A program made the translations under genes and the position numbers. Below are positions 8,100 through 56,287 of a stretch of 64,000 bases of DNA, in pieces. The DNA comes from a virus. Lineage: Duplodnaviria; Caudoviricetes. The DNA is taken from the IMG/VR virus record IMGVR_UViG_3300033075_001021, one strand, 5' to 3'. Under the pieces are notes generated by a model that ran no database searches, was not told the origin of the DNA, and was given only the letters and a program-made list of their open reading frames with translations. The first letter of the stretch is position 1; every line of letters begins with the position of its first letter.

Positions 8100-9887
8100 T
8101 TATGTATTATAAATACCAATCAATGGTGGATTAGTTACACCACTACCAGCAAAATCTGTAGAGATACCAACAGATGTTCCTGATACCTTGGTTATTGTAT
8201 GGAAATCCCATGTTTGTGGGTCCACACCAGTTTCATTTAAAAATATTGGACCTGTTTGTGTTTGCTCCCCAATATCCAATGTATATCCAACACTTGAACC
8301 ACTAATCATTTTATAAATATTATAAGAATGGGTTGTTTTAGTAACAGTATCGGCTCTTACAACTTTCATTGAATAATTTGTTTTACCAGTATATGGTGCT
8401 GATTGAGACTGAAATAACACTGGTGGGTTTGTACACACAAAAATATTATTCTTTAAATCATAAACAGTTGACGCCGTATAAGTACCCCCAGCACCAAACA
8501 TATTATCAGCTGGTGTTGGTGTACAAGGTGGTGCTGAGTTACATGAACCAGTAAACGTTGGGAAGTTTTCAAAACCAACACCAAAATTTGGTCCACTATA
8601 CCTAGATTCTGAATTTTCAATAACAACATTATTGTAAAACCTATTATTTCTAGCATCAATCTTAAACGCACCAGAACCACTAGTATAAGCCAACGAACCA
8701 CAATTAATAATTAAATTATACGCACAAACATTTTCGTAGGCGGTTGAACCACTACTTGTCGCCCCAAATTCAAGAATACCAGCACAATCAACAAATGTAT
8801 TATACATGATACTATTATAATTATTTGTATTAAACGGTTCAACCGCACCACCATTTGTACCAAAAGACTCGGCCCACGCCCATGCACCTGATACATAGTT
8901 ATGGTGTATGTTACAATAATTACCAGTTGTTGTTATAGCATTTGCCCCATATGAACCAGTGGTATATGCATATACTTGACCAAAGTTTACCATCGTGTTA
9001 TATGAAACGTCATTATAATCACCAGCATATTCAACCCCGTTACCAATATTGTTTATAAAACAATTCTTAACGGTACAATTATTACATTTAAGTGTTGGGT
9101 CATCCTCACCTAACATAATTGCAGTAATAGAATATGATGGGTCAACTTTTGGTACGGTTGGATATCTTGGGTCATTAAATTGCAAACCATCAATTATGAT
9201 GTAATTAGTGTTTTCAAATGTTAATATTTTCTTTGTTAAATAATTTGTTACAGATGGATATGGGAATAAAAAATTAGGTAAAGGACCATAACCATAATTA
9301 CCAAATATAATTGGATTAGTTTGAGTACCAGTAGGACAATTAAGCCCACCATAACCTCTCCACCATCTGAATCCATAAGACCTATCTTGGCAATAAAATG
9401 TATCACCGCATTTAAACAAGATTGCATCACCAGCTTGTATTGTACCATTATTACCAGCAGTATTTACTTGCGATAAACTTGTCCAAGGAGTATTAATACC
9501 ACCATTTTGAGTTGTGCCTGTATAGCTAGACGAAACATACCAATATCTTAACGGTATTGGTGTTCTTTGTAAAACTGTAACAGTAACATTACTAGCTCCT
9601 GTTAAACCAAAATTATTTGTGGCTGTTAATTTATATACATATGTTCCAACGGTTAAGCCAGAAATATCTGTTACTGCTGAATTTGGTGTAATAATATTAC
9701 CACCAGTAGGTCCAGATGTTTTACTCCATAAATACGCTGTAATGGTCCCAAGTTGAGTTACTGCTGAACCACTCAATACCCAACTGGTTGTTGGAAGTGT
9801 GACTGAAGTTCCGCTACCAGCATTAACGACTGGATTAACATTAGTTTTCTTAGAAGACGATATGACACCAATATTAAATGAATACAT
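8100..9887 (-). CDS. PKD/Ig domain plus parallel beta-helix (pectate-lyase-like) adhesin or depolymerase
   Basis: YLWSKTSGP...GTYVYKLTAT Ig/PKD signature; YVS...NG....PW.SL and GDAILFKCG beta-helix cap; Asn-rich strands. Confidence 0.65.
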   Translation of the reverse strand: MYSFNIGVISSSKKTNVNPVVNAGSGTSVTLPTTSWVLSGSAVTQLGTITAYLWSKTSGPTGGNIITPNSAVTDISGLTVGTYVYKLTATNNFGLTGASNVTVTVLQRTPIPLRYWYVSSSYTGTTQNGGINTPWTSLSQVNTAGNNGTIQAGDAILFKCGDTFYCQDRSYGFRWWRGYGGLNCPTGTQTNPIIFGNYGYGPLPNFLFPYPSVTNYLTKKILTFENTNYIIIDGLQFNDPRYPTVPKVDPSYSITAIMLGEDDPTLKCNNCTVKNCFINNIGNGVEYAGDYNDVSYNTMVNFGQVYAYTTGSYGANAITTTGNYCNIHHNYVSGAWAWAESFGTNGGAVEPFNTNNYNSIMYNTFVDCAGILEFGATSSGSTAYENVCAYNLIINCGSLAYTSGSGAFKIDARNNRFYNNVVIENSESRYSGPNFGVGFENFPTFTGSCNSAPPCTPTPADNMFGAGGTYTASTVYDLKNNIFVCTNPPVLFQSQSAPYTGKTNYSMKVVRADTVTKTTHSYNIYKMISGSSVGYTLDIGEQTQTGPIFLNETGVDPQTWDFHTITKVSGTSVGISTDFAGSGVTNPPLIGIYNT

Positions 9888-9896
9888 ATTTTATTT

Positions 9897-12140
9897 TTAA
9901 ACAGTTATATCACCAGTTAAATACCAAGTATTAGTTGAACGTTTTATTAAAGTAGCAAAGCTATATGTTGATGTTAATTTTAATGCATTATTAGCACTTA
10001 AAATGGTTACACCAGTTCCACCACTAATTGTTGTTTGACCAGCCCCAGTTTGACAAATTGTTATTTGTGCGCCAGTACTAAATGTCACAGCACTATTAGG
10101 TGGTACAATAACTGTATTGGCATTTGCGTTCCCCATTTCAACAATAACATTGTTACTTCCGTTTGAGACATCAGATAACACTAATGTATAGGTGTTACCC
10201 GTTCTTGTATTAAAACTAACATTTGTGTTTGTTGCAGCTGTTATACCAGTTAAGTTCGAGCCGTTACCAAAATATGTTGTTGCTGACATTGTGGTTGCCG
10301 ATATTGTTGCTGATGTCATTAAACCCGTAACAGTCAAACCAGTAAAGGATTGTATTGTTGTTGATACTGTACCACCAGTACTATTTGTAAGTACTAATCT
10401 ATTATTTGTAAATGTACCACCAGTTATACTTGTTCCAGCTGGACCCTGTGGACCAGTTGGACCTGTTGCACCTTGAATACCTTGAATACCTTGAATACCT
10501 TGTGGGCCAGTTGCACCCTGCGGACCCGTTGCACCTTGTGGACCTGCTGGACCTGTTGCACCCTGTGGACCCACAGGGCCTTGCGGACCAGTTGCACCTT
10601 GTGCTGCTAATAATGCCCAGCTTGTTGTTGCTGTTAATGGTATACTATTAGTATTTGCACTTAATGCAAAATAAGTTGAACCACTATATGCTACCGCATC
10701 ATTCTGCGTATATGCTGATACTGAACTCCAATTACCTTTAAAGTTTAAACCAGCTGGACCTACTGGACCAGCAACACCTTGTGGACCCTGTGGACCAACT
10801 GGACCTGTTGCACCACTTAAACCTTGCGGGCCCTGCGGACCTGTTGCACCACTAACACCTTGTGGGCCTTGCGGTCCCGCTGGACCTTGTGGACCTTGTG
10901 GTCCAGTTGGACCAGCAACACCTTGTGGACCCTGTGGACCAACTGGACCTGTTGCACCGCTTAAACCTTGTGGACCCTGTGGACCCTGTGGGCCTGTTGG
11001 ACCAGCTGGACCTGTTGCACCAGCTGGACCTTGAGCACCCGTTGCACCACTAACACCTTGTGGACCCGTTGCACCTTGTGGGCCTGTAAGACCTTGTGGG
11101 CCTGTAAGACCTTGTGGACCCTGCGGACCCACAGGGCCTTGCGGACCAGTTGCACCTTGTGCTGCTAATAACGCCCATGTGCTTGCTGTTGTTGGTATAT
11201 TGTTGGTATTTGCTGTTAATGCAAAATATGTCGAGCCACTATATGCCACCGCATCATTCTGCGTATATGCCGAAGCCGAATTCCAGCTGCCTTTAAAGTT
11301 TAAACCCGTTGCACCAGCTGGACCCGTTGCACCCTGCGAACCTGTTGGGCCTGTTGCACCTTGTGGACCCGTCGCACCTTGTGCTGCTAACAAGGACCAT
11401 CTTGTTGTTGCTGTTAATGGTATATTATTAGTGTTCGCACTTAATGCGATATATGATGAACCACTATATGCCACCGCATCATTCTGTGTATAAGCTGATG
11501 CCGAATTCCAAGCCCCTCTCCAAACCATACCGACTGGACCTGCTGGACCCGTTGCACCCTGTGGACCTGTTGCACCAGCTGGACCCATTGGCCCAGTTGC
11601 ACCACTTAAACCTTGTGGACCTTGCGGTCCTTGAAGACCCTGAAGACCTTGCGGGCCAATTGTACCTTGTGGGCCTTGTGCACCCTGTGGACCTTGAGCA
11701 CCAGTCGCACCGCTTACGCCTTGCGGACCTTGTGGGCCCACTGGGCCTTGTGGGCCTTGTGGGCCTATTGGACCTTGAGCACCAGTTGCACCTTGTGCTG
11801 CTAACACAACCCAAAATGGAGAAATGTTAGGTTGATTGTTTGTATTATCAACAACGCAAAAGTATGTTGAACCACTATAACTAACAACATCATTAGTAAT
11901 ATACGCTGTTGTAGCACTCCACACACCTTGCCATACCAATCCAGCTGGACCAATATCACCTTGCGGACCTTGCGGACCTTGCGCACCCTCTGGACCTTGC
12001 GGACCAACTGGACCCTGAATACCTTGCGGACCTTGTGGGCCAGCTGGACCCTGCGGACCAACCACACCTTGAATACCTTGTGGACCTTGTGAACCTTGTA
12101 AGCCTGTTGCCACACGGTTTTGTTGAATTATTATTCCCAT
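9897..12140 (-). CDS. Collagen-like fibre protein with four Trp/Tyr carbohydrate-binding-like modules
   Basis: Long (GPQ/GAT)n triplets interrupted by four G.W....AY..ND.V.YSGS.Y modules; C-terminal beta-sandwich. Confidence 0.85.
10435..12100 (-). repeat. Gly-X-Y collagen triplet repeats (9-nt units)
   Basis: Repeated ggaccttgt / gttgcacc units on the plus strand. Confidence 0.9.
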
Positions 12141-12153: not shown

Positions 12154-13338
12154 TTATGTAGTTATTGCACCCCATAGTAACCACTCATCTGTATTTATTT
12201 TTTTTAAGTATTGTACACTATATTGTGAGTCACTAAATACACCAATAAGTGATGCGTTACCCACAACTGAATTTACAGTAACACCTGTATTAACCCCAGC
12301 AAAAATTATTTGAACCGCTGTTGATTGTACAAATGTGTACATGCTATTAATTGGTATCGTTGATGCGCTATTTGCTGGTACAACAATAGTTATTGAAGCA
12401 GAACTATCCTCACCAACCCAAATCATTTTACCTGCCGTATCACCACTTAATGCATATTGCGAAACCGCATCAACAGTTATTGTTTCTTGTGGTAATGGTG
12501 CTGATGATGTTTTTAATTTACCGTTACTATCAGCTAATACATAACCGTCACCAGAACTAGCTAAATTACCAAATACTATATCACCAGATGTATTTTCCCA
12601 AGCAATATGTTTGGATGTATTTAAAGATATTAATGTTGGGTTATAGTAAACACCCCTTAAATCACCAGAACCAAATGTAGATTGCGTATATGTTGGGTTA
12701 ATCAATAACTGATTATAGTTCATTGTATTCGCTGTAATATTTGAGTTTACATTGGATGCAATTCTAATAGAAGTCTGTGTACCAGACGCACCAATACCAT
12801 TTGTAAACCCACCATCAAATGTGTAGTAACTTAACCCAGCTATGCTACCAACAAGAGCGTATCTTGCAATGTTACCATTACCAGCCCAAAAGTTTAATTG
12901 ATTCGCACCACCATAGATACCAGTTTGAGCACCGTTAGTTGAAATACGTACAGCGTTGTTGGTATTGATTATACCACTAACATCTACCTTATATGCTGGC
13001 GATGCGGTACCAATACCAATATTAGTTCCATTATCAAATATTTCACTATTGGTAAGTGTTGTTGCGTTTGACCATTTTGGAACATAGTTAGTAGTACCAC
13101 TACCAGCCGTACCCCCACTAGTTGTTCCTGTGCCGATAATTTGACTTAAATCTGCGGTAATTGAATTACCGTTTATTTGTGATAAGACTAAATTATTACC
13201 GACTGTGGTTGCTGTGGATATTGATATACCCTTTAAAAAGATAAAATTATTATCAACATCATCATGACTCAATACACTACCCTTTGTTACATCACCGTAT
13301 GGACTTTGTAGTGTTCTTAATATTAAATTATTATTCAT
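12154..13338 (-). CDS. Tail fibre-like virion protein
   Basis: [15 protein letters not shown]-terminal anchor, NIGIGT.SP.YKVDV.G fibre repeat, C-terminal domain homologous to that of the collagen protein. Confidence 0.65.
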
Positions 13339-13359: not shown

Positions 13360-16300
13360 TTAAACTCGATATGATGAAATTAACACCCAATTAGTACCAT
13401 CGGAAACCCATTGAAACCTCTCAACAGGTTTCAATGCAACAATAGCACCAATACTACCATCAACGTCTTCGATGGTACCAGCCACTGATATAACATATAA
13501 ACTACCACCACCAGTATCCTTTGTTCTTGAAATATAATACATTCTATTTGTACATGTTGCTGGGTCGGGTAATATTATATTAAAATCACTCCCACCTAGA
13601 TAATCAAATCTGTAAACTGTTGTAAAATCATCGATTGTATAATCAGCAGCAAGCGTTGTCATATCAACATAAGTATATTTCGCACCAAAAGAACCATTTA
13701 CATCAAATGTTGATTTTGGTTCAACAACTCTAACACCTATTTTACCGTTAGGTGTTTCAGTTGCAATAGGAGTACTAATTAAATCGTCATTTAATCCAGA
13801 ACCAAATAATACGCCACCAATATTCATTGTTGAACCTGTACTAAATGGTAGTGTAATATTATTACCAATAATAATTGAATTAGGTGGGGCTCCATTATCT
13901 TTACCTGCTTTATTACCAATAAAGATTGAATTATTGGCGACGTTTGCACCATAACCAGCTTGATAACCTATAAAGTTTGAATAATTTGCGTTGTTTGCCC
14001 GATAACCAGCATAATAACCTATAAAGTTCGAGGCATTGGCATTATTAGCACTTTCACCAGCATATGAACCAAAGAAATTTGAATTATTTGCATCCTCAGC
14101 AATAAACCCAGCATACTGTCCAAAGAAATTAGAATTATTAGCTCTTGGTGATTGAAATCCAGCATATGAGCCAAAGAAATTTGAATATTGAGCGTTCGGT
14201 GATTCATTACCAGCATAATAACCAATAAAGTTTGAACCAGCAGCACTTGTTGCACCATAACCAGCTTGATAACCAATAAAGTTTGATGTAGCCGCATTCA
14301 CAGCACCCTGACCAGCATTCTGACCAATAAAGTTAGCGGCAAATGCATTAGAGGCGTTATACCCAGCTGAATCACCAATAAAGTTTGAACCAGCAGCATA
14401 TATTGCTCCCTCCCCAGCACTCGTACCAATAAAGTTTGAATTATTTGCATCCTCAGCAATAAACCCAGCATACTGTCCAAAGAAATTAGAATTATTAGCT
14501 CTTGGTGATTGAAATCCAGCATATGAGCCAAAGAAATTTGAATATTGAGCGTTCGGTGATTCATTACCAGCATAATAACCAATAAAGTTTGAACCAGCAG
14601 CACTTGTTGCACCATAACCAGCTTGATAACCAATAAAGTTTGATGTAGCCGCATTCACAGCACCCTGACCAGCATTCTGACCAATAAAGTTAGCGGCAAA
14701 TGCATTAGAGGCGTTATACCCAGCTGAATCACCAATAAAGTTTGAACCAGCAGCATATATTGCTCCCTCCCCAGCACTTCTACCTATAAAATTTGAAACC
14801 GTCGCATATGTTGCATCATAACCAGCACTCGTACCAATAAAGTTTGAATTGGGTGCACTCTCGGCATAATAACCACTTTGAAAACCAATAAAGTTTGAAT
14901 AACTAGCACCAATTGCTTGATAACCAGCTGAATCGCCAAAGAAATTTGAAGTATTAGCACTTGTCGCATTACGACCAGCATCTCGACCAATAAAGTTTGA
15001 ATAACTAGCATTTTCAGCAAACGCACCAGCGGATAACCCAAAGAAGTTTGAACGAGTGGCGTTAATAGCCGCATAACCTGCCTCAAGGCCAAAGAAGTTT
15101 GAACGACTAGCACCAGTTGCTTGATAACCAGCATCTTCAGCAAAGAAGTTTGAATTATCAGCACCTGTTGCACCATAACCAGCCTCTTGACCGATGAAAT
15201 TAGAATTATATGCGAATGTGGCAAATTTACCAGCTTGAAACCCAATAAAGTTTGAGCTATCGGCTTTTGTTAATTGACCAGCATCTCGACCAATAAAGTT
15301 TGAATTATTTGCGTCTTCAGCACCTTGACCAGCACCATAACCAAGGAAATTTGCAAAACTAGAATTCAATGCACTTTTACCAGCTTCAAACCCAATAAAA
15401 TTCGATACCTCACAATCAAATGCATCATCACCAGCAGATGTACCAATAAAGTTTGAGTTGGTTGAACCACTAGCAGTATGTCCAGCATAGTAACCAATAA
15501 AATTGGCACTTATTGAATCAAATGCACTATCACCAGCGTTTACACCAATAAAGTTTGAATAAGGCATGTTATATGAATACACACCAGCATTTTTACCAAT
15601 AAAATTAGATGAATGAACATTTATTGCGCTATCACCAGCGGCATTACCAATGAAATTACAATTTGTTGCCCCACTAGTATCTGTACCAGCTGTTTGACCA
15701 ATAAAATTTGAACCATTAGCATTTTTCGCATTATTACCAGCGTAAGAACCAATAAAATTAGAGTAATCTACGTCATCAGAATTATTACCAGCAAAATAAC
15801 CAATTAAATTTGTTGCTGTCTGCCCAGTTACATCATAACCAGCTTCGTGACCAATAAAATTACAATACTGATTATCTTTTGCGACATAACCAGCTCGATA
15901 ACCAATATAATTAGATTCTGTGACACCACTAGCATAATAACCAGCTTCAAAACCAATATAGTTAACATAAGAATCTGTTAATCCAGACCTAACATCAAAT
16001 CCAGAATCTAAACCTAAAAATATAGATTTGGTATTACCAAATCCGCTATTATTGATATCAGATAACCTAGCCAATGTATCACCACTAATTACAGATAATG
16101 GAAAATATATTTTATCTGGATTTTTAATATAAAAACCATTAACATCATTAAAAATACCACCTCCAGTGTATGATATACCAAAACCATCTGATAAAATAAG
16201 GCTTGTTGTATTTCCATATAGCTCACTCTCAATTGTTAAACCGTTCTCATTTAATATAATGGAATCAGTTGCACCAGATGTTTCGGTACTTATATTAATT

Positions 16301-16668
16301 TCTGTTTGACCAGTTGATACGGATACAATGTTTACGTTAGCGGTTGTGTCATCAATATCAATAAACGATAAACTTTCAGGGGCACCAGTTAACTGAACTG
16401 TTAACAGGTCTTGTTTTGAGGTTTGTAAGTTTTCAAATGCTGATAGTATTGTATCACCAGATGAAAGAGGTTGGTTTAAACCAGTCGTAAAACCACTCAA
16501 TCTTGTTCCTAAAACGTCAGCATCAGGAAAAACTATATTATTCACAACTGTACCAGACACAGTATCAAAACCAACGGTATAGTTATCACCACTAACAACA
16601 ACGGCGAATTCAACATCTGGTGTTATGTTGTTCAGTATCGGAAATTGGCTTATTTTTCTATTAGGCAT
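13360..16668 (-). CDS. Fibre protein with 17-aa SNFIG..AG repeats (YadA/Hep-Hag-like beta-roll)
   Basis: About 40 consecutive 17-aa repeats; MPNRKISQ N-terminus. Confidence 0.75.
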   Translation of the reverse strand: MPNRKISQFPILNNITPDVEFAVVVSGDNYTVGFDTVSGTVVNNIVFPDADVLGTRLSGFTTGLNQPLSSGDTILSAFENLQTSKQDLLTVQLTGAPESLSFIDIDDTTANVNIVSVSTGQTEINISTETSGATDSIILNENGLTIESELYGNTTSLILSDGFGISYTGGGIFNDVNGFYIKNPDKIYFPLSVISGDTLARLSDINNSGFGNTKSIFLGLDSGFDVRSGLTDSYVNYIGFEAGYYASGVTESNYIGYRAGYVAKDNQYCNFIGHEAGYDVTGQTATNLIGYFAGNNSDDVDYSNFIGSYAGNNAKNANGSNFIGQTAGTDTSGATNCNFIGNAAGDSAINVHSSNFIGKNAGVYSYNMPYSNFIGVNAGDSAFDSISANFIGYYAGHTASGSTNSNFIGTSAGDDAFDCEVSNFIGFEAGKSALNSSFANFLGYGAGQGAEDANNSNFIGRDAGQLTKADSSNFIGFQAGKFATFAYNSNFIGQEAGYGATGADNSNFFAEDAGYQATGASRSNFFGLEAGYAAINATRSNFFGLSAGAFAENASYSNFIGRDAGRNATSANTSNFFGDSAGYQAIGASYSNFIGFQSGYYAESAPNSNFIGTSAGYDATYATVSNFIGRSAGEGAIYAAGSNFIGDSAGYNASNAFAANFIGQNAGQGAVNAATSNFIGYQAGYGATSAAGSNFIGYYAGNESPNAQYSNFFGSYAGFQSPRANNSNFFGQYAGFIAEDANNSNFIGTSAGEGAIYAAGSNFIGDSAGYNASNAFAANFIGQNAGQGAVNAATSNFIGYQAGYGATSAAGSNFIGYYAGNESPNAQYSNFFGSYAGFQSPRANNSNFFGQYAGFIAEDANNSNFFGSYAGESANNANASNFIGYYAGYRANNANYSNFIGYQAGYGANVANNSIFIGNKAGKDNGAPPNSIIIGNNITLPFSTGSTMNIGGVLFGSGLNDDLISTPIATETPNGKIGVRVVEPKSTFDVNGSFGAKYTYVDMTTLAADYTIDDFTTVYRFDYLGGSDFNIILPDPATCTNRMYYISRTKDTGGGSLYVISVAGTIEDVDGSIGAIVALKPVERFQWVSDGTNWVLISSYRV
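14078..14778. repeat. Tandem duplication, period 357 bp (7 x 17-aa units)
   Basis: 14078-14421 and 14435-14778 appear identical by eye. Confidence 0.85.
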
Positions 16669-18448
16669 TTTCTATCAGTATTTTAAAATTGTTTTCTTGT
16701 AAAATGTAAAACCCGTTTTCTTGTATCAAGAAATCACCCACCACATAATATCTAGTTACCTCTTGATTATAAATATTTTGAATGTCAGTAAAATATAAGT
16801 CACAAGCATTAAATTTAAAAGTGGAAATACCACCATAAAAGGTTCCAGCGAAGTTTTTCTCAATTGCCAAGCCCAAATCGGCGGTATCAATACCATCAAA
16901 CGTTTGAGTTTCAATTAATCCTTGTGACCCACCACCAAGACTAATATTAAACGGAACCCCAACTTGCTTCTCCATATGCTCCTCAAGTCGTTTACCGATA
17001 AACTCACTAAAATTATTGACTACGAATTTTAATTTACCATTAATGTAAAACATCAACTTACCCTTTCTTTTTGGTTTAGTTTTAAGTTCACAGTCAGTCA
17101 GCGCATCAACACTAAATCTTATAATTACACTTGTCCATGCATCATATCTAACCATACCACTTGCTGAATATTGTTCTTCAGTTGTTAATCCGCTAATATA
17201 GGTTGTTCCAGAACATGTACCTGTAACGGTTAACAATCTATAACCAATTCTACCATCATCTGTTATCCTAAAACCTAGCGCATTATCAATAACATCAATT
17301 TTAGGGTCTAAGTTATCAAATTGAATTGATGTTGAAAACCCTGTTGTTGTACATACCGTTTGATTACCATAACCACTTGGTATTTGAGCACCACAACCAG
17401 AACAAGTACGACCACTTAAACCAGCTCTACCATAAAACAAAAATGGATTTGTTGTATTGGTCACTACAGTTTTTGGCTTTGTTATAGTTATTGTTTGCCC
17501 ATCATCATTACAAACGGTTTTTTGTTTAAAACCTAAAGGATTACCACAGCTTGAACATGTTGTTCCTGAACCAGTTGCCCTCCCATACAATAAAAATGGG
17601 TTGGTTATAGTTTCTGTGGTTGTTTGATTAGGGTATAGTGTAATTATTTCACCATTGGTGCCACTAATTGTAATATCTGTTTCTTTTGGAATAGTACACC
17701 ATTGACTTACAACATCCGTACAACCAACTGGTAAAGTACAAGCACTTGTACATCCAGTATCAGCACCTTCAAAACGATTCCAAAATTTATTTTCAGCCCT
17801 TGTACCCCAATAAAAGAAAAATCCCTTATTATTTGGGTATTGGTCGTTTAATTTTTCAGCCGTAAAACCAGTTAAAAAGTCTTCATTTCTTTTTAACCAA
17901 AACTCAGCAACCCATCCATTTTTAAATCTATCTGGCCAAACTTGGTATGTAGACCCATCAATCTTATAATAACCTTGGTAGAATCCACCATTAAATTGAG
18001 CATACATTCCACTAACATCAATTTCTGTTTTAATATCATAAACAAAGTTTTTAGTTGTACCCGTAACTTTGTTTAGATGTAATCTAGTGTCGCCAGATGG
18101 TATAACCAATGTAGTACCTGTTAAAGCAGATAAAAGAACCAAATTTGAGAAATCACTGTTATCTTTATCAAACGTCACTAACCCATTATCAATCCCTGTT
18201 AATCCAATTGTTGGGAAAGTATACCCACTATTTGTACCGCCAGTCCAAACCGCTAAACTAGAAATTGTCGTGGCTGAAGTATTACCACTAAGATATATGT
18301 TAGTGTCATTAAAATCAAAATGGGTTATAAGACAAGTATCACCACTAAAAATGCTTGAATCATCATTAGCCAAATAAAAGTCCCAAAACTCACTATTGGA
18401 TAGTATGATATCCAATTTATTAAAATTAAAGTTTTTAATGTTACCCAT
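16661..18448 (-). CDS. Virion structural protein (possible LamG/ConA-like fold, Cys-rich inserts)
   Basis: EFWLK, W..V.IR, LMFYING, F.GGIS.F pattern; located in the fibre operon. Confidence 0.5.
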   Translation of the reverse strand: MGNIKNFNFNKLDIILSNSEFWDFYLANDDSSIFSGDTCLITHFDFNDTNIYLSGNTSATTISSLAVWTGGTNSGYTFPTIGLTGIDNGLVTFDKDNSDFSNLVLLSALTGTTLVIPSGDTRLHLNKVTGTTKNFVYDIKTEIDVSGMYAQFNGGFYQGYYKIDGSTYQVWPDRFKNGWVAEFWLKRNEDFLTGFTAEKLNDQYPNNKGFFFYWGTRAENKFWNRFEGADTGCTSACTLPVGCTDVVSQWCTIPKETDITISGTNGEIITLYPNQTTTETITNPFLLYGRATGSGTTCSSCGNPLGFKQKTVCNDDGQTITITKPKTVVTNTTNPFLFYGRAGLSGRTCSGCGAQIPSGYGNQTVCTTTGFSTSIQFDNLDPKIDVIDNALGFRITDDGRIGYRLLTVTGTCSGTTYISGLTTEEQYSASGMVRYDAWTSVIIRFSVDALTDCELKTKPKRKGKLMFYINGKLKFVVNNFSEFIGKRLEEHMEKQVGVPFNISLGGGSQGLIETQTFDGIDTADLGLAIEKNFAGTFYGGISTFKFNACDLYFTDIQNIYNQEVTRYYVVGDFLIQENGFYILQENNFKILIENA

Positions 18449-18461: not shown

Positions 18462-19661
18462 TTAAAATTTTTCAAGTAGTACTCTTTTCCAACCAAACGA
18501 ATTAGTTTTTATATATAGATAATTGTCATCTCTTGTGATATCACCAACACTTCCATTTATATCATACGATGATAACGGTGTATATTTCGGAATACACAAA
18601 GATTTCGGAATCAAACCTGTATTTGTTGTCCAATTACCACCATTATCAACAATAAATTTAGAATCTAATTCATTGTTAATAGCCTTTTTCACGATGATTC
18701 CACCACCAACAGAAGTTTGTTGTGTACCATTGAAGTTCAACTCAATGACATTATCTTCAGCAAAAATTGTTTGCGTATTTAATATGCTGTTAGTCCTAAT
18801 TTCACCTCCATACATTTCCTTTATAGCCTCAATTAACAACGCTGGAATATCTTTATAACTAACCGTCAAGTACCCATCAGGGGTTTCCCCGACCAATTCT
18901 GGGACAATATTTTTAACATCTTGCGCTATTAAACCAATTTTTCTTTCTTCTCCACCTCGAACCCTATCAACCCAATTAAAAGACACACCAGTTAAGCTTA
19001 AAACCTTACTTAATGCGTCATTAATTGGTAAAATATTCTCCTTTAATCGTTTATCAGATGCTTGATTTACAACAAGTCCAGTTGCGTCAACACCAATATC
19101 TACGGTACCAGGTCCAGCGCCAACATTAGTTATAATTAATTTTTCTGTTCTAGTAATTCCACTAACATCAACCCATATTGTTCTACCAGTAAAATCAGAT
19201 GTTCCAGCCGAATAATAATTTAATGAACTGGTATAAACAGTACCACTATAATTTCCACCACCTAAATCTATCATAACGGTAGGTGTTATATCAAAACTAA
19301 CACCAGTATAAGCAGTCGCAACTGTATTCCCATCAATTACCGTCGTTGAACTTGCACTAAATGCTGGTTGGGCATATTGTGTTGTTCCACTATTTGTTGG
19401 TGTTAATGCTGATAATGAACCAGTCGCAATCGACATATTAGCACTGTACCAAGTATAATTTGTTGTTCCTGAATTACCAGAAAAAGCGCTTGTTACACCA
19501 GTTATTGTCAAAGTTATTGCACTTGTTGTTAAATCTGGTCCACTAGTTAATGCACTAAAAGGAACACCAAAACTTGTTCCACCAGACAACACTGTTATTG
19601 TCTCAGGATATTGTTTTATTTGCCGATTTGATGAGTAATCCAATTTGGTTCTAAATTCCAT
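18462..19661 (-). CDS. Tail fibre protein with S74-type intramolecular chaperone domain
   Basis: SDKRLKENI...L.GV.FNW...IGLIAQDV...PELV. Confidence 0.8.
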   Translation of the reverse strand: MEFRTKLDYSSNRQIKQYPETITVLSGGTSFGVPFSALTSGPDLTTSAITLTITGVTSAFSGNSGTTNYTWYSANMSIATGSLSALTPTNSGTTQYAQPAFSASSTTVIDGNTVATAYTGVSFDITPTVMIDLGGGNYSGTVYTSSLNYYSAGTSDFTGRTIWVDVSGITRTEKLIITNVGAGPGTVDIGVDATGLVVNQASDKRLKENILPINDALSKVLSLTGVSFNWVDRVRGGEERKIGLIAQDVKNIVPELVGETPDGYLTVSYKDIPALLIEAIKEMYGGEIRTNSILNTQTIFAEDNVIELNFNGTQQTSVGGGIIVKKAINNELDSKFIVDNGGNWTTNTGLIPKSLCIPKYTPLSSYDINGSVGDITRDDNYLYIKTNSFGWKRVLLEKF

Positions 19662-22497: not shown

Positions 22498-23763
22498 ATG
22501 AAAAAAATTAAAGTTTTAGTTGTCCCATCAGACAGAACTGGTGTAGGTTACTTTAGAAGTACAAAACCACATCTTGCATTAGAAGAAAATTATCCAGATG
22601 AATTCCACGTTGATATAGATTACGAACCACAGTTAGACAATGACGAGTTTTTAAAACAATATGACATTATTCACTATCACAGAACACTTGGACCATTCGA
22701 TAAAATGCAAGGTGTGCTTGAAAGATTGGATAAACTAGGTATTGTTAGTATTATGGATTTAGATGACTATTGGTCGCCAGGTACCCATCACCCAGCACAC
22801 TTGTTGATTAAACAAAGTGGAATGGATAAGATGATTATCAATAATCTAAAATTGGCTAAGAATATTACAACAACAACCGAAATATTTGCTGATGAGATTC
22901 GCAAATTTAATAAAAATGTTTTTGTTCTTCCAAATGCAATCGACCCAACAGAAAAGCAATTCATACCAAATCCAGAAGTAAGTAATAGGATTAGAATTGG
23001 TTGGTTAGGTGGCTCATCTCACTTACATGATTTAAGGCTAGTGTCTTCTATTGCTGGACATTTTGACAATGTTCAATTGGTTTTATGTGGATTTGACCTT
23101 AGAGGTGTAATGACAATGATTGATGAGAAAACAGGACAACAAACTCAAAGACCGATTAAACCACAAGAAAGCGTTTGGTATGAGTATGAAAAGATATTCA
23201 CAGACAATTATAGGACGGTAAGTCCAGAATATAAGGAATTTCTTCTTCAATTTAAAAACGAAGAATATCCAAACGTAGCAAATGAACCGTACAGAAGAGT
23301 ATGGACAAAACCAATTAGTAGCTATGCATCAAATTATAACTTATTTGATATCCTAATAGCCCCACTTGAAGAAAATATCTTTAATAAGGTAAAAAGTCAA
23401 TTAAAAGTTATTGAAGCTGGCTTTCATAAAAAAGCTATTATCGCACAAGACTTTGGCCCATATCAAATTGACCTTAAAAACGCACATCAATTTGGCGGCG
23501 GTTGGGACCCAACAGGAAATGCATTATTGGTTAACTCAAATAGAAATCATAAGGATTGGGTTAAGAATCTTACCAAACTTATCACCAATCCAGAATTAAT
23601 CAAACAATTGAGTGAAAACCTTTATAACACTGTAAAAGATAAATACTCAATTAATAAAGTGTCTGAAGATAGAAGGGCACTATATCTAAATTTATTAAAC
23701 AATGAAACTAACAATCAAACTAGACCCAACAGTAGGCCAGTTAGTGAGGTCGTTGAAGCGTAA
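22498..23763 (+). CDS. Glycosyltransferase (GT-B, GT4-like)
   Basis: G.GYFR..KPH, DLDDYW, RIGWLGGSSH, IAPL..N.FN.VKS.LK..EAG. Confidence 0.8.
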   Translation: MKKIKVLVVPSDRTGVGYFRSTKPHLALEENYPDEFHVDIDYEPQLDNDEFLKQYDIIHYHRTLGPFDKMQGVLERLDKLGIVSIMDLDDYWSPGTHHPAHLLIKQSGMDKMIINNLKLAKNITTTTEIFADEIRKFNKNVFVLPNAIDPTEKQFIPNPEVSNRIRIGWLGGSSHLHDLRLVSSIAGHFDNVQLVLCGFDLRGVMTMIDEKTGQQTQRPIKPQESVWYEYEKIFTDNYRTVSPEYKEFLLQFKNEEYPNVANEPYRRVWTKPISSYASNYNLFDILIAPLEENIFNKVKSQLKVIEAGFHKKAIIAQDFGPYQIDLKNAHQFGGGWDPTGNALLVNSNRNHKDWVKNLTKLITNPELIKQLSENLYNTVKDKYSINKVSEDRRALYLNLLNNETNNQTRPNSRPVSEVVEA

Positions 23764-41391: not shown

Positions 41392-42510
41392 ATGGAAGAA
41401 CAAAAAAAACAAGTTGAACAAATCAACGGCCTAATCGAAAAATTGGAAAAAAAAGATTTTGGGCTGTACTTCTTCACACTAGATACCAAGGGTAACCCAA
41501 CCGCTGGTATTGCAAACATTTACGAACACGTTAAATTACTTAATGAATTGGGTTATAAGGCATACATTCTTCATGAAAAGAATGATTATAAACTAAAAGG
41601 TGATGAAACTGGAATGGGAATTTCAGATTGGCTTGGAGAAGAATATGCGGAACTTCCGCACATTTCTATTGAAAGTCAAAATCTTAATATTACCCCAACC
41701 GATTTTATTATAATCCCTGAGGTATTCTCAACCATTATGGACCAAGTTAAAGGGTTTCCGTGTAGAAAGGTCGTTCTTAGCCAAAGCTATGATTATCTAT
41801 TGGAGCTTTTACCCATAGGTAAAAGATGGGATTTAGATTATGGTTTTAACCATGTTATTACCACTAGTAACAGACAAGCTTCCTACATTAGAAGTCTTTT
41901 CCCGATGACAAGAGTTCACACTATTCCAGTATCAATCCCTGAATACTTTAAACCTAATGACAAACCAAAAATTCCTGTAATTACCCTTCATACAAGACAT
42001 CAAGGTGACGCTGCTAAAATTGCTAAAGCATTTTATTTACAGTTCCCTATGTATAAGTGGATTACATTTAAAGAACTTCGTGGTCTTCCAAGAAGAACAT
42101 TTGCTGAAGAACTTCGTAAATCATGTTTGTCTGTTTGGATTGATGACCCAGCTGGATTTGGAACATTCCCATTGGAGGCAATGGAATGTGGTACACCAGT
42201 AATCGGTAAGGTTCCTAATATGGTTCCAGAATGGCTAGAAACAACAGACGAGCAAGGAAATTTGGTTGTTAAGAACAATGGTATTTGGACCAATACAACT
42301 TTAAATATTCCTGAACTTATTGCAACATACATTAAAGTTTGGTTGGAAGATTCAATTCCTTCTGACTTAACAGAAGCAATTAAAGAATCAACAGGACAAT
42401 ATACATCAGAAAAACAAAAAGAAATTCTAGCACAGGTATATGGCGAGTTGATTGAGGAAAGAAAACAAGAATTTAATAACATGCTACCAAAAGTAGAAGA
42501 AAAAGCTTAA
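41392..42510 (+). CDS. Glycosyltransferase (GT-B, GT4-like)
   Basis: IIPE, GFGTFPLEAMECGTPVIG. Confidence 0.82.
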   Translation: MEEQKKQVEQINGLIEKLEKKDFGLYFFTLDTKGNPTAGIANIYEHVKLLNELGYKAYILHEKNDYKLKGDETGMGISDWLGEEYAELPHISIESQNLNITPTDFIIIPEVFSTIMDQVKGFPCRKVVLSQSYDYLLELLPIGKRWDLDYGFNHVITTSNRQASYIRSLFPMTRVHTIPVSIPEYFKPNDKPKIPVITLHTRHQGDAAKIAKAFYLQFPMYKWITFKELRGLPRRTFAEELRKSCLSVWIDDPAGFGTFPLEAMECGTPVIGKVPNMVPEWLETTDEQGNLVVKNNGIWTNTTLNIPELIATYIKVWLEDSIPSDLTEAIKESTGQYTSEKQKEILAQVYGELIEERKQEFNNMLPKVEEKA

Positions 42511-42554: not shown

Positions 42555-43336
42555 TTTTGTTAAAATGATATATTTATATATAAACAATCGATTATGATTA
42601 TATATAAAACAACAAATCTTGTTAATGGTAAATTTTATATTGGTAAGGATGAAAAAAATAACCCGAATTATTTAGGTTCGGGTAAAATTTTAAAAATAGC
42701 GATTAAAAAGTATGGTACTGAAAATTTTAAGAAAGAAATTCTTGAAGAATGCAATAACAAAAAAGAACTAAATGAAAAAGAAAAATATTGGATAACCACT
42801 TTATCAGCAACAACTCTTGGATATAATATTGCAGAAGGTGGGACTGGTGGTAAAACAAAATTTAATACAACACATGTTTATCAATTTAATAAAAACGGTG
42901 ATTTTATAAAAGAATGGAATTCGGCAGCTGAGGTTGAAAGAACATTGGGTATTGACCAATCAGCGGTAATAAAAGCATGTAAAAGAAAATTGTTGAGTGT
43001 TAAGGGGTTTATGTGGTCATATGAAAATAATATAAAATCATTTTCTGATACAAGAAAAATTAAAATTTTACAATACGATAAAAATGGTTGTTTTATTAAA
43101 GAATGGGATTCAATTGTTGATGTTAAAAAAGCATATGTAATATGTGATAGACATATCCAATTAGTTCTTGATAAACCAAATAAAACAGCAAAAGGGTTTA
43201 TTTGGCTAAGAAAAAAAGAAAAGATAATAGATAAAATTGAGGTACCAAAATCTGGATATTTCAATAATAAAAATGCTAAAAAATAATTATGGAAAAAGAA
43301 ATAAAAAAAACTGAAATTTCTGTGATACTACCCGTA
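42555..43336 (+). mobile_element. Free-standing homing endonuclease cassette carrying a replacement 5' end for the GT2 gene
   Basis: Late promoter (42570-42577), GIY-YIG ORF and recoded MEKEIKKTEISVILPV; boundaries approximate. Confidence 0.65.
42594..43286 (+). CDS. GIY-YIG homing endonuclease with two NUMOD1-like repeats (Seg-like)
   Basis: MIIYKTTNLVNGKFYIGK, YLGSG, GYNI..GG.GG, 2x VYQF.K.G.FIKEW.S...KGF.W. Confidence 0.9.
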   Translation: MIIYKTTNLVNGKFYIGKDEKNNPNYLGSGKILKIAIKKYGTENFKKEILEECNNKKELNEKEKYWITTLSATTLGYNIAEGGTGGKTKFNTTHVYQFNKNGDFIKEWNSAAEVERTLGIDQSAVIKACKRKLLSVKGFMWSYENNIKSFSDTRKIKILQYDKNGCFIKEWDSIVDVKKAYVICDRHIQLVLDKPNKTAKGFIWLRKKEKIIDKIEVPKSGYFNNKNAKK

Positions 43337-44098
43337 CACGACCTAAACGAAGAAACAAAACCAATGTTTCAAATTGCTGTAAAAAGCGTTGAACTACAAA
43401 AAGTTCAACCAGATGAATTGGTAATTGTTGTTCCGAAAGACAGCGAAGTTAGTAAATACGTGAAATCAATTGACTATGCTACCTTATCAGATAAAATAAC
43501 CATTGTTGAAAATGATGGTGCAACCGACTTCTGTTCACAAATGAATTTGGGTGTTAGTAAAGCTAAATCTGACTGGGTTTCATTATTGGAGTACGATGAC
43601 GAATATGCAAATATTTGGTTTAAGAATGTTGTCGAATATCGTGAAGCATACCCCAATTATGAAATTTTTATGCCAATCATTATTGACACTGATGCCGATG
43701 GTGGTTTTATTGGGCTTACCAATGAAGCAGTATGGGCACAGAGTTTTTCTGATGAGTTAGGTGTACTAGATTTAAATGCACTCCTTACATACCAAAACTT
43801 TAACATTGATGGTATGGTTATCAAAAAATCGTTATTCGAAGACTTTGGTGGATTTAAATCAAACATTAAATTAACATTCATTTATGAGTTTTTGTTAAGA
43901 ATGGCATTTAAGGATGTTAAGATTACAACAATCCCAAGATTTGGATATAAGCACGTTAACCAGAGGCCAAATTCATTATTTTCAAATTACAGAAATGAAA
44001 TGGACGCTGTCGAAGCAAAGTGGTGGCTAGCACAAGCTAAGAAAGAATACTATTTTGATAAAGATAGAAAAATAACATACATGAAACCAACGGTATAA
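43289..44098 (+). CDS. Glycosyltransferase family 2
   Basis: ISVILPV, N.GV..A...W..LLEYDDEY, GGF. Confidence 0.82.
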   Translation: MEKEIKKTEISVILPVHDLNEETKPMFQIAVKSVELQKVQPDELVIVVPKDSEVSKYVKSIDYATLSDKITIVENDGATDFCSQMNLGVSKAKSDWVSLLEYDDEYANIWFKNVVEYREAYPNYEIFMPIIIDTDADGGFIGLTNEAVWAQSFSDELGVLDLNALLTYQNFNIDGMVIKKSLFEDFGGFKSNIKLTFIYEFLLRMAFKDVKITTIPRFGYKHVNQRPNSLFSNYRNEMDAVEAKWWLAQAKKEYYFDKDRKITYMKPTV

Positions 44099-48323: not shown

Positions 48324-49727
48324 ATGGTAATTAGGACATTTTTCGATAAAAACAATACCCTTATAAAGAACAGCTATTTGAACACTGGTAGAAACCCAGT
48401 TGCCGAGTTATTTTATGGCGGTACTGACGGTGAAAACAAATACAGCCGCTTTATTTTTCATTTTGATACTGATAGATTGGTTAGTCTCTATACTGGGGGA
48501 ACGTTTACCGATTTGTCCAAATTAAAGCACACGCTTAAGCTTACAAATACAGCATCTTTTAACTACGACCTTTTAAATGGAACCATGGGGAACAAGTGTA
48601 GGGCTTGTTCATTTGACCTTATTGTGTTCCCAGTAACTCAAAATTGGGATGAGGGGGTTGGATATGATTATGAACAGTGCGACCTGCTTATTGGAAATTA
48701 TGCTATTTCAACAGGCCCCTCAAATTGGGGATATTCAAGAACTGGTGAATATTGGGATAATGGGCCAGGTACGTATTCAGGTAACCCAACCGTAATTGCG
48801 ACCCAACATTTTGATTTAGGAAATGAGAACATGGAAGTTGATATTACAGACTATGTTAATGGTATTTTGACAGGAAATACAAACTATGGTTTAGGTGTAG
48901 CCTATTCTAGACCATTTGAGTTAACCAGCACCGTTTCACTTCAATATGTGGGTTTCTTTACTAGACACACACAAACGTTCTATGAGCCCTATATTGATAC
49001 CGTATACAGTAATCATATCGTTGACGATAGAAACAATTTCTTTTTAGACAAACCAAATAAGCTTTACCTATATGTAAACTTAGCTGGTAACCCAACAAAT
49101 TTGGATAATTTACCATCTGTTACAATTAATGATGAAAATGGAGACGTTGTTCAAGTTTTTGAATCTAGCGCCGTCACACATGTAACCAAAGGGGTATATT
49201 CTATCGATATTACGATTCCAACCACCAGTTCAAGCCAAAAAGGACACTTGTACAGTGACGTTTGGTCCGATATTGTCGTTAATGGTGTTTCTAGGCCTGA
49301 TATAAGCCTCGAATTCCAATTAATGGATAGTTTTGAGTATTTCAATATTGGGGCCGCAGATTCGCTTCCAAAAAGCGTAGCGGTGAATGTAGCTGGTATT
49401 AAGAATCAAGAAAGGATAAAACGTGGGGATATTAGGAAGGTTTTGGTTTCAACAAGAATACCATATACCGTAGAACAGACACAGAATATTACGGGATTAA
49501 AATATAGACTTTATGTCAAAGAAGGAATGAATGAAGTAACCGTGGTCAATTTTCAACCAATTGAAATGGCAAGTAATTACAATTACTTTTTAATCGATAC
49601 ACAAAGCTTAATTCCAAATACTTATTATTTAGACGTGTTATGCGAATCTAATTTAGAGGTGACAACCCTAAAAGATGTCCTTAATTTTACAGTAATAAGT
49701 GATTCTAATTTAAGAATGTCACAATAA
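48324..49727 (+). CDS. Virion structural protein (DNRLRE-like plus Ig-like)
   Basis: NTG....EL, SRF..F, WDEG.G, DIT..V, NYG, F.TRHT.T.YEP pattern. Confidence 0.5.
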   Translation: MVIRTFFDKNNTLIKNSYLNTGRNPVAELFYGGTDGENKYSRFIFHFDTDRLVSLYTGGTFTDLSKLKHTLKLTNTASFNYDLLNGTMGNKCRACSFDLIVFPVTQNWDEGVGYDYEQCDLLIGNYAISTGPSNWGYSRTGEYWDNGPGTYSGNPTVIATQHFDLGNENMEVDITDYVNGILTGNTNYGLGVAYSRPFELTSTVSLQYVGFFTRHTQTFYEPYIDTVYSNHIVDDRNNFFLDKPNKLYLYVNLAGNPTNLDNLPSVTINDENGDVVQVFESSAVTHVTKGVYSIDITIPTTSSSQKGHLYSDVWSDIVVNGVSRPDISLEFQLMDSFEYFNIGAADSLPKSVAVNVAGIKNQERIKRGDIRKVLVSTRIPYTVEQTQNITGLKYRLYVKEGMNEVTVVNFQPIEMASNYNYFLIDTQSLIPNTYYLDVLCESNLEVTTLKDVLNFTVISDSNLRMSQ

Positions 49728-54376: not shown

Positions 54377-54394
54377 ATTATATAGATAGTTTTA

Positions 54395-56287
54395 TTATCT
54401 AAGTTCAGCAACATTGAATGTTGGAACACCATCGACACGTACATGGCCGTAAAAGCGGTTATTCACAACTTTTTTAGCGTAACGAGTCATGATACCTTTA
54501 ACTGGAGCAAAGTTGAAAGGATTGTACATAGTTGGGGTCAACTGAAGAGGTACATACGGAGCGTAAATGTAACCAGTGTCCAACAATGACTTACCTTTGT
54601 GACCAACAATTACTGAGTAAGCTGGTGCATATGGGTCACGATATACTTGATATCTACCGCTTAATGTACCGATTCTTTCAATACCCATGTTGTATTGGTC
54701 TTGCTCTGGGTTAGCATCACTTACGTGGAAATACTCAAGGTCATCGAATACAGCTGAAATTTCAGAAGATACAACGATGAAGTTTGCACCACCACGAAGA
54801 GTTGATTTGTGGATTTGAGCTGAAAGTTGGTTAACTCTAGTAATAAGAGTTTGGTTCCAGTCTTTCTGAGTGTATGGGCTAGCAGCAGAAGAAGCTTTTC
54901 TCCAACCGTTGTAGTCCCAACGTAATTGCCATGCAGCAGCTTTACGTAAGTCTCTCAAGATTTCTCTATCGATTTCAGCAGCAACCTGCTCAGACAACAT
55001 AGCTGTTAATTCAGCTTCTGCGTCGATATTGTGGAATGCGCTTACGTCTTGAGCCAATTCAGGAGACCAAGTAGCTCTTAATTTTCTTTCTTCAACAGCT
55101 ACAACAACTTCATCAAGTTTGAATGAAACTTCACCAAGTTCAGTTTCAAGTTCCAATGAAGCGTATTCAGCCCATGCGAATACATATGCTGGGTTAGTTG
55201 TTAAACCAGATACAGTACCTAAGATACCACCAGTTGTACCAGTAGCACCAACGTAACCGTCATAAGTAGCTGTACCAGCAGCAGCTGTACCAGAAGCAGT
55301 AGTACCTACTGGGTGACGAAGGTCAAGCTCAATGTACATAAGACCATTAGGGGTAGTTAAAGTACCACCTGGGCCGTTTTGTACGATACCTTTACCGTAT
55401 TGTTGAGTAACGATACGAAGAGGAACCTCGCCACCAGCAGCGATGATTACGTTACCATCTGGGTCTTTAATTGCGTTTGTAGTAGTACAAATCAATGAAG
55501 CCAAGAATGATTCAGTATCCATGTTGTTACCATCAGGACCAGTCAATACTTCACGGCCATTTGCTGAACCAGCACCGCCAGTGAAACCTGAAAGACCGAT
55601 GATTACGCTTCTTACAGTACCATCAGTAGCCAAAGGCAATACTGAGCTAGCAGAAGCAACAGACAATGAACCGTCATTACCGAATGTATAAGCATTCAAA
55701 GAAGACATGTTTATTGTCTTGATAGTAAGAGTACCTTTTGAGTTATCGAACATACCGTCATTGTAGAAAATGTCGTATAAGTTCTTAGCCATCCACTGAG
55801 TCAATGGAGTAGATGCTTTTGTTACAGCAACTGGCAAAGCAGCAGCAGTAGCAACACCATCGTGTTCACCGTTAAGACCAGTGTGAGCAGAGAAAGTTGT
55901 ACCATATGGAGTGGTAGCGTAGTCGTTACCAGCAACACCAGCAGAGTTAACACGGCTAGAAGTTTGAGGTACGAAATAGAACAATTTACCGATTGGCATG
56001 TTCATAGCTTGAACAGACACGATGTCGTTAGCAAGCAATTTAGAGAATACACGTCTTACGATTGGGAACACTACAGTTTCGAAAGAACCTGAAGAGTTAG
56101 CAGTAGTAGACTCATTCAAAAGTTGAGAAGCTTGGTTCTCATACAATTGAGCAATGTTCTCTTTTACGTGGCCTTTAAGACCATCAAGGAAACCAAGGCT
56201 ATCCCATTTTGCTTGGGTCTCTTTACGGATTGCCTTCATGTGGTTCAATCCAATGTTTCCAACTTGTCCAGAAGTTAATAAATTCAT
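54395..56287 (-). CDS. Major capsid protein, T4 gp23-like
   Basis: FPIVRRVF, VSVQAM..P.G..F, RKL.A.WSPELAQD..A.H.IDAEAEL, EIDREI, YAPYVPL, GIMTRYA; start ATG 56287. Confidence 0.95.
   Translation of the reverse strand: MNLLTSGQVGNIGLNHMKAIRKETQAKWDSLGFLDGLKGHVKENIAQLYENQASQLLNESTTANSSGSFETVVFPIVRRVFSKLLANDIVSVQAMNMPIGKLFYFVPQTSSRVNSAGVAGNDYATTPYGTTFSAHTGLNGEHDGVATAAALPVAVTKASTPLTQWMAKNLYDIFYNDGMFDNSKGTLTIKTINMSSLNAYTFGNDGSLSVASASSVLPLATDGTVRSVIIGLSGFTGGAGSANGREVLTGPDGNNMDTESFLASLICTTTNAIKDPDGNVIIAAGGEVPLRIVTQQYGKGIVQNGPGGTLTTPNGLMYIELDLRHPVGTTASGTAAAGTATYDGYVGATGTTGGILGTVSGLTTNPAYVFAWAEYASLELETELGEVSFKLDEVVVAVEERKLRATWSPELAQDVSAFHNIDAEAELTAMLSEQVAAEIDREILRDLRKAAAWQLRWDYNGWRKASSAASPYTQKDWNQTLITRVNQLSAQIHKSTLRGGANFIVVSSEISAVFDDLEYFHVSDANPEQDQYNMGIERIGTLSGRYQVYRDPYAPAYSVIVGHKGKSLLDTGYIYAPYVPLQLTPTMYNPFNFAPVKGIMTRYAKKVVNNRFYGHVRVDGVPTFNVAELR

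Follow-up and report, generated by a model that had tools for sequence, protein, structure and literature searches.

The virion proteins encoded on a 64,000-nucleotide stretch of viral DNA (Duplodnaviria; Caudoviricetes; IMG/VR record IMGVR_UViG_3300033075_001021; hereafter the window), which is part of the genome of an uncultured T4-like jumbo myovirus (Gp23/Gp20 type), carry a large excess of the four-residue motif [S/T]-[G/A]-x-T. In the outward-facing particle proteins of this phage and its relatives, it is four to nine times as frequent as chance predicts. Our analysis confirmed that this motif is real, sharply defined, directional and a property of the protein. As to its function, we put at about even the chance that Phi-[S/T]-[G/A]-x-T (Phi, a hydrophobic residue) is an acceptor or recognition motif for cytoplasmic O-glycosylation by a phage-encoded soluble glycosyltransferase (GT), a reading that is based on sequence.

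A total of 66 genes were called in the window, and occurrences of [ST][GA].T were counted per gene and compared with global shuffles that preserve composition and with local shuffles over 30 residues; per-protein figures are given as observed / expected from composition. Every one of the six minus-strand genes at 8100-19661, referred to here as the fibre block, exceeds expectation, with per-protein z values of 4-12:

16661..18448, minus strand: outer virion protein of 595 aa, in which long low-confidence insertions accompany a ConA-like lectin jelly-roll core; 16 / 1.9
18462..19661, minus strand: tail fibre of 399 aa that ends in a Peptidase_S74 intramolecular chaperone (PF13884, 1e-16; tail-fibre PHROGs); 11 / 1.7, all 11 sites within residues 26-170
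13360..16668, minus strand: 1102-aa fibre protein with ~30 SNFIGxxAG repeats; 13 / 3.0
12154..13338, minus strand: 394-aa fibre-block protein; 8 / 1.9, p 8e-4
9897..12140, minus strand: collagen-like fibre protein of 747 aa that contains four CBM5/12 units (Collagen 5e-54, CBM_5_12 1e-18); 32 / 5.8
8100..9887, minus strand: protein of 595 aa, a K319L-like PKD domain at its N-terminus (PF22352, 6e-19); 9 / 2.6, p ~1.5e-3

When the six proteins were pooled and Gly-x-y collagen runs removed, 81 sites remained against 16.9 +/- 3.8 (z 16.7; 20-residue local shuffles, 2000 rounds, shuffled maximum 30), a strong enrichment over composition-preserving shuffles. The initial annotation, made by eye, had counted about 15 motifs in 16661-18448 and reported many more in 18462-19661, 13360-16668, 8100-9887 and the collagen-like protein, in agreement with these figures. 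It had also found none in the helicase or the polymerase; both do have 0 sites, which tells little because just 0.3 and 0.6 were expected. Almost all window proteins outside the fibre block carry 0-2 sites, matching expectation. The following genes from outside the block are referred to below:

54395..56326, minus strand: major capsid protein of Gp23 type (PF07068, 1e-72) with an expanded insertion domain at residues ~137-398; 4 sites / 1.6-2.4 expected, p 0.08-0.18, all 4 in the insertion
48324..49727, plus strand: 467-aa clade-conserved protein adjoining the gp5-like baseplate hub gene; 3 / 0.7, p ~0.03
60514-62568: portal of Gp20 type (PF07230, 4e-77)
57831-58580: prohead protease, S77 (PF03420, 7e-23)
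3798-7628: DNA polymerase, family B
486-2339: SNF2 helicase

The capsid protein and 48324-49727, both of which the initial annotation had listed, are not convincing from the window alone, and their excess is clear only family-wide. Relatives in IMG/VR comprise 29 loci with a 16661-18448 homologue and at least 597 stretches with a capsid relative; four complete genomes of 294-363 kb were examined whole. The excess is clade-wide, across 29 + 80 related loci and the four complete genomes, and falls in the same protein families:

16661 family (29): 356 observed / 38 expected / 31 reversed
18462 family: 393 observed / 108 expected
13360 family: 527 observed / 127 expected
48324 family (45 homologues): 196 observed / 35 expected / 35 reversed
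capsid protein family: 300 observed / 92 expected / 157 reversed

Homologues of the portal, protease, scaffold-region, terminase and replication proteins were at or under expectation. Large open reading frames (ORFs) enriched at Poisson p < 1e-3 number 4-10 in each of the four complete relatives, and several of them match virion, tailspike or Hoc-like PHROGs.

Single-position substitution profiles were calculated for a motif-selected and a homology-selected set, and both were sharp. Position 1 is enriched for Ser (5-6.5x) and Thr (3.6-4x) and position 2 for Gly (4.7-5.4x) and Ala (3.8-4.8x), with no other residue enriched at either, while position 3 is free. Position 4 is enriched for Thr (4.4-5.1x, vs 1.1x for Ser), with C at 2.9x and H at 2.0x in one of the two sets; the remaining residues at the defined positions stand at ~1x or less. 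The sole flanking signal is a hydrophobic residue at position -1 (53% vs 32% background). When all a-b-x-d patterns were scanned across the five fibre proteins other than the collagen-like one, SGxT (27 vs 3.2) ranked just behind the SNFIG-repeat patterns, whose signal is separate from that of SGxT, and SAxT and TGxT were likewise enriched. Neither the reversed motif nor five permuted control motifs showed enrichment, and Gly/Ala-x-Thr lacking Ser/Thr at -3 was not enriched either. The general Bacteroidota O-glycosylation sequon, D-[ST]-[AILVMT], occurs 14 times in the fibre block against 11.7 expected, so the initial claim that the motif is distinct from it stands. An apparent avoidance of the motif in non-target proteins (36 forward vs 144 reversed, pooled homologues) was dropped as an effect of a few families.

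These controls bear on an explanation that we regard as extremely improbable, namely that the excess stems from composition, internal repeats or a signal in the DNA. Collagen Gly-x-Thr runs and repeated CBM units do inflate the count in 9897-12140, part of which is due to GxS-GxT triplets and to repetition of the CBM5/12 units, and GPT collagen repeats produced a spurious best-scoring ORF, before masking, in the uncultured megaphage LR756501 considered below. The motif count of the initial annotation owes a part to such triplets and repeated units, and possibly to the PKD-domain consensus in 8100-9887. Yet 9897-12140 retains 24 sites / 3.7 expected after Gly-x-y masking, and neither local shuffling (over 20 or 30 residues), nor collagen masking, nor comparison with the reversed and permuted motifs removes the overall excess. 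Every codon family of Ser, Thr, Gly and Ala is used at motif sites, and therefore the constraint acts on the protein and not on the DNA.

Outside the clade, no ORF reached p < 1e-3 in Flavobacterium phage immuto, Microcystis phage Mel-JY01, LR756508 (a 484-kb uncultured genome, of which the first 400 kb were scored), T4 or phi92, and forward and reversed counts were about equal in all five. The fibre, baseplate and decoration proteins of T4, for example, hold 20 forward and 22 reversed sites, with 17 expected. Fibre- and tailspike-rich phages can thus lack the excess, which is no general property of tail fibres or tailspikes.

Within the clade, the density of sites is kept and their position is not. 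In the capsid family, none of 56 motif alignment columns was kept in >=80% of sequences, and in the 16661 family just 4 of 46 were, among which columns 129 (TGTT, 30/30) and 231 (TGCT, 29/30) are near-invariant; inside kept columns, S and T exchange, as do G and A. This pattern fits a site that is read by a trans-acting factor better than it fits a folding requirement.

The sites also have a preferred location on the particle. Alignment with the capsid proteins of T4 (gp23), immuto and Mel-JY01 delimits a capsid insertion domain of 209-306 residues, and in 78 homologues this insertion holds 264 sites (79 expected, 127 reversed) against 40 in the HK97-like core (30 expected, 33 reversed). Relatives encode gp18 homologues of the contractile sheath; in four of these, 30/30 sites lie N-terminal to the gp18-conserved core segment (p ~2e-4 if uniform). 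The motif therefore marks parts that are expected to be exposed on the particle. The AlphaFold2 (AF2) model of 16661-18448 is poor (pLDDT 54), with only the ConA-like lectin core confident (its fold matches CBM40-type and phage tailspike domains at Z 17), and its low-confidence segments hold 8/16 sites in 53% of the length, that is, no concentration. The surface placement expected at first is supported by the capsid insertion and the outer sheath domains, each relative to its core, and not by mapping sites onto this model. Two long insertions break up the jelly roll of 16661-18448; both carry a conserved FL(I/L)YGRA...CxxCG element, perhaps a duplicated loop that zinc or a disulfide stabilises. 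In 13360-16668, the SNFIGxxAG repeat unit of 14-15 residues recalls YadA-head-type left-handed beta-rolls.

Turnover and exposure also bear on a reading in which no enzyme is involved, namely that the motif is a structural feature peculiar to the lineage (for instance a tight turn capped by Ser/Thr, then a Thr in a beta-strand) that is favoured in fast-evolving beta-rich outer domains. We consider this rather unlikely. A strand-turn-strand arrangement would be well served by the hydrophobic residue at -1 together with the beta-branched Thr at +3, and the few near-invariant columns are what it would lead one to expect. Some sites belong to a repeat or domain consensus (SNFIG repeats, CBM5/12, possibly PKD): in 8100-9887, 4/9 sites lie inside the PKD domain, whose consensus presumably holds motif-like strings that may account for them. 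The remaining proteome shows no avoidance of the motif (rest of the window, 9 forward, 13 reversed, 11.4 expected; nor in whole genomes). On the other hand, the same four-residue rule applies in unrelated folds (the lectin jelly roll, capsid insertion, outer sheath domains, S74 fibre and collagen-flanking regions), and the majority of sites have no positional conservation. The interchange of Gly and Ala argues for small size and not for a Gly-only backbone conformation. T4, phi92 and immuto, all rich in fibres or tailspikes, have neither an excess nor a forward/reverse asymmetry. Taken together, the statistics, sharpness, direction, turnover, exposure and lineage specificity of the motif fit a short linear motif with a trans-acting reader.

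Candidate readers are encoded in the same window, where Pfam identifies ten GT genes with 12 GT domains, a UDP-GlcNAc 2-epimerase and three Rml-like sugar-nucleotide enzymes (an NAD-dependent dehydratase/epimerase that is 4,6-dehydratase-like, an RmlC/FdtA-type cupin and an RmlD-like reductase). The initial annotation had listed about ten GTs, sugar-nucleotide enzymes and two methyltransferases; the first two hold, and of the methyltransferases we recover a single FkbM (34183-34830). The relevant genes are:

22498..23763, plus strand: soluble GT4-type GT-B glycosyltransferase, clade-conserved, candidate priming enzyme (AF2 pLDDT 94.6)
26536..28185, plus strand: fusion of a GT-A (Glyco_tranf_2_5) and a GT-B, kept in 3/4 complete relatives
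28185..38539, plus strand: variable glycan island (Pfam), unique to this phage among those compared
41392..42510, plus strand: soluble GT4, AmGGT/Agt-related, clade-conserved (family profile vs PDB)
43289..44098, plus strand: GT2 (GT-A), clade-conserved (PF00535), with a late-type ATATTTAT box upstream

The island contains three GT2 genes (one with two GT2 domains), a GT32-like gene, two GT4 genes, the UDP-GlcNAc 2-epimerase, FkbM and the 4,6-dehydratase/epimerase-like, RmlC/FdtA-like and RmlD-like genes; three of its genes have a weak BLASTP match (24-29% identity), in one relative each. No transmembrane segment was predicted in any protein of 22498-44098, and Pfam detected no flippase, polymerase or oligosaccharyltransferase, nor a membrane transferase, in the window. 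No sign of export was noticed, though no signal-peptide search was made.

Three of these GTs (22498, 41392 and 43289) occur in 4/4 complete relatives and in 0/4 T4-like outgroups (T4, immuto, Mel-JY01 and LR756508). The profile of the 41392 family matches PDB entry 8xsg over its full length (E 4e-16; next match 0.077), which is Actinobacillus AmGGT, a homologue of Agt; Agt is a GT4 alpha-1,6-glucosyltransferase that extends protein-linked glucose on cytoplasmically glycosylated adhesins (PMC12159676). This gene is present in all five clade genomes (G001-G005) and absent from the outgroups. The 43289-44098 profile matches the TagF N-domain and GalT1, and the 41392/43289 pair is directly adjoining in G003, G004 and G005. 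In the window, a GIY-YIG/NUMOD1 homing endonuclease gene (42594-43286) splits this pair. The 22498-23763 protein has GlgM, MshA, PglA and BshA as its best Foldseek matches, and PDB sequence searches with it and with 26536 gave no match. Its family has >8000 homologues. Longer homologues of 700-800 aa match it in two stretches (L017:2154-4526, L016:1496-3646, L019:154-2565 and L006:4016-6241), and database members of the same length carry a LAGLIDADG domain (PF14528). These insertions look like inteins, which is unusual for a glycosyltransferase and suggests that the gene is essential.

The initial annotation had linked the motif to the GT cluster as a whole. All five clade genomes have both the motif and the conserved GTs, and the four T4-like outgroups have neither. 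The island is unique to this phage and the motif is clade-wide, so the block of ~10 GTs cannot be what the motif tracks. Of the 431 genes of G005, ten are common to G002, G003, G004 and LR756501, and among these ten the 22498-type GT4 and a ClpB-like chaperone alone are nearly absent from five motif-negative genomes. This phylogenetic profile points, weakly, to the GT4 at 22498-23763 as the best candidate for the priming enzyme. The chaperone, of ClpB/ClpA-type double-AAA architecture (G005 155997-158486; L138:15997-18486), is 39% identical to the LR756501 copy.

LR756501 is a structurally unrelated, 735-kb uncultured megaphage that carries a 22498-type GT4 at 35% identity; after collagen masking, 15 of its ORFs hold 236 forward and 74 reversed sites (44 expected), with an [ST]-G-x-T excess in at least 10 non-collagen large ORFs. 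It also encodes a true TibC/Aah-type BAHT (TIGR04414, 307 bits; 580165-581187, L263-L264, in a 743-aa ORF). As an independent positive for the GT4 it was ruled out, given the collagen artefact, a narrower motif and its own BAHT.

Several observations weigh against the O-glycosylation reading or against the GT4 as its priming enzyme, in addition to the collagen and repeat contributions, the PKD sites, the missing concentration in the 16661-18448 model and the missing avoidance described above. Co-occurrence of motif and GTs within the clade is confounded, because shared descent makes it a single evolutionary event. The motif of LR756501 does not accept Ala at position 2, and its BAHT means that this genome does not single out the GT4. 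The structural neighbours of 22498-23763 are generic GT4 enzymes, which say nothing about its acceptor. Homologues of this GT4 with 26-37% identity are encoded by phi92 and by three small-phage contigs that are motif-free; in L275, a syntenic relative at 42% identity, the two proteins that could be scored gave no clear excess; and none of the short contigs with distant GT4 homologues carries the motif. A quick GT4 tree did not separate motif-positives from negatives. Searches for known protein-priming families found no BAHT (TIGR04414) at E <= 0.01 in G002-G005, no GT41 (PF13844) in G001-G005 and no Maf (PF01973) in G001-G005 apart from a single fragment in G003 that scores below the threshold and contains stop codons. 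In phi92 (NC_023693.1), four adjacent GT genes, gp163-gp166, lie at 102200-105376 (L225); two are distant relatives of the window GT4, and phi92 proteins have no motif excess.

The lack of a known priming family in the clade records is among the points that favour a reader other than a GT. The motif could then serve another Ser/Thr modification (phosphorylation, acylation or methylation-linked), a host enzyme or a direct binding function, and the GT island could serve remodelling of host surface polysaccharide or DNA modification. Turnover, sharpness and exposure are silent on the chemistry of the reader, the large island is strain-specific where the motif is clade-wide, and a thymidylate-synthase-family gene, with which base modification would be compatible, is present in all relatives. 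Even so, we judge this set of explanations distinctly unlikely. The shared-gene profile of the motif-positive genomes contains no kinase or other modifying enzyme, just the GT4 and the ClpB-like chaperone, and immuto, LR756508 and T4, all motif-negative, have the thymidylate-synthase-family gene just as well. The lack of an excess in immuto argues against a general Bacteroidota-host factor, if that is the host. O-glycosylation would be the most likely chemistry because both polar positions are hydroxyl residues and three soluble GTs are clade-core, one of them specifically Agt-like. The initial proposal of an acceptor sequon for a phage-built glycan is partly supported: it is favoured by the motif and the soluble GTs, and disfavoured by the absence of BAHT, Maf and GT41 and by the strain specificity of the island.

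Under O-glycosylation, a phage-encoded soluble GT would read Phi-[S/T]-[G/A]-x-T in the host cytoplasm, yielding O-glycosylated Ser/Thr on the fibres, capsid insertion domain, outer sheath domains and baseplate-distal protein. We infer that the modification is a sugar, that the acceptor is either the Thr at position 4 or the Ser/Thr at position 1, and which enzyme primes it. The Agt-like GT4 (41392-42510) and the GT2 (43289-44098) may extend the sugar after priming, and the strain-specific island 28185-38539 (GTs, epimerase, Rml-like enzymes and FkbM) may elaborate and cap it. Particles would thereby gain a glycan coat that varies, on attachment sites that form a conserved set.

Such a system would have partial counterparts among known ones. 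Freeman et al. (2023, Cell Host Microbe) are said to have shown virion glycosylation in mycobacteriophages Che8, Corndog and Myrna by mass spectrometry. In systems of the Che8 type, likewise, the proposed route is cytoplasmic: soluble phage GTs that lack export machinery would O-glycosylate capsid and tail proteins of the phage itself. Their glycans reportedly sit, by mass spectrometry, at the C-termini of capsid and tail-tube subunits of actinobacteriophages, whereas here the motif is dispersed, four residues long, found on fibres, capsid insertion and sheath of a T4-like jumbo phage, and known from sequence alone. BclA-type collagen-like glycoproteins of Bacillus and Clostridioides spores are O-glycosylated at Gly-x-Thr; they share with the window a collagen-like surface fibre, Thr in Gly-x-Thr (the motif ends in [G/A]-x-T) and adjacent rhamnose-pathway and GT genes, but most sites here lie outside collagen, and Gly/Ala-x-Thr alone is not enriched. 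The BAHT enzymes TibC and Aah, acting on TibA and AIDA-I, are soluble and O-glycosylate many Ser/Thr in beta-rich adhesin repeats; none is present in the four complete clade genomes, and the clade motif accepts Ala at position 2, unlike that of LR756501. The Actinobacillus NGT/Agt system (PMC12159676) is a soluble, cytoplasmic and sequon-directed route to adhesin glycosylation, to which 41392-42510 offers an Agt relative, but it primes Asn in N-x-S/T through a GT41, for which the clade has no match, and the motif contains no Asn. General O-glycosylation in Bacteroidota, with periplasmic transfer, differs in its sequon, which is not enriched here. T4-type DNA glucosylation uses a base hydroxymethylase and a DNA glucosyltransferase; the relatives carry a thymidylate-synthase-family gene, as do motif-negative phages.

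No close relative of the window was found among GenBank phages by megablast, and the 16661-18448 protein had no tblastn match there. By capsid protein, the nearest isolates are immuto and Mel-JY01, at ~40% identity (38-41%) over the conserved half. The nearest isolate and comparison with moraphages make a Bacteroidota host plausible; moraphages are freshwater jumbo phages (200-307 kb) whose structural genes are T4-like and whose predicted hosts are Bacteroidota, and four putative GT orthogroups are among their core orthogroups, common to at least 80% of genomes (PMC12619734). Large aquatic T4-like phages likewise have multi-GT islands, ascribed to lipopolysaccharide (LPS) or the cell wall; the reports on these and on moraphages name no acceptor or motif. 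In the literature, mycobacteriophages were the only phages for which we found virion glycosylation (as cited in PMC12619734), and we found no acceptor motif for a phage.

The window also encodes PhoH. By eye, a ATATTTAT box recurs 15-30 nt upstream of structural genes and the GT2 unit, and is probably a late promoter. It precedes 2623-3771, 18462-19661 (minus strand), 19725-20264, 39524-40390, 42594-43286, 44869-45255, 48324-49727, 53613-54299 (minus strand) and 59696-60469 (minus strand). A scan of the window for the TATAAATA late promoter gave no more matches than chance. TTGAC-N17-TAtAtT boxes were seen upstream of 22498, 40429, 53613 and 58616.

To our knowledge, sugar coats on phage particles have been shown for few mycobacteriophages only, we know of no acceptor motif for any phage, and we know of no case in which the target of the big GT islands of large aquatic phages has been identified. 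Against this background, it is possible, though we hold it with some doubt, that large aquatic phages share a cytoplasmic O-glycosylation code, in which a GT4-type enzyme reads the motif on any exposed surface of the virion and hypervariable islands then build strain-specific glycans at these conserved sites. If this is true, the particles would wear a variable, O-antigen-like sugar coat, which would explain the purpose of 'LPS-like' GT islands, and the defined tag would give a testable answer to what those islands act on. Glycosylated phages would become predictable from sequence alone, and the tag-and-enzyme pair would be a compact cytoplasmic O-glycosylation system for glyco-engineering. 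For the phages themselves, such a coat would bear on host recognition, particle stability and the evasion of grazing or of binding by host debris.

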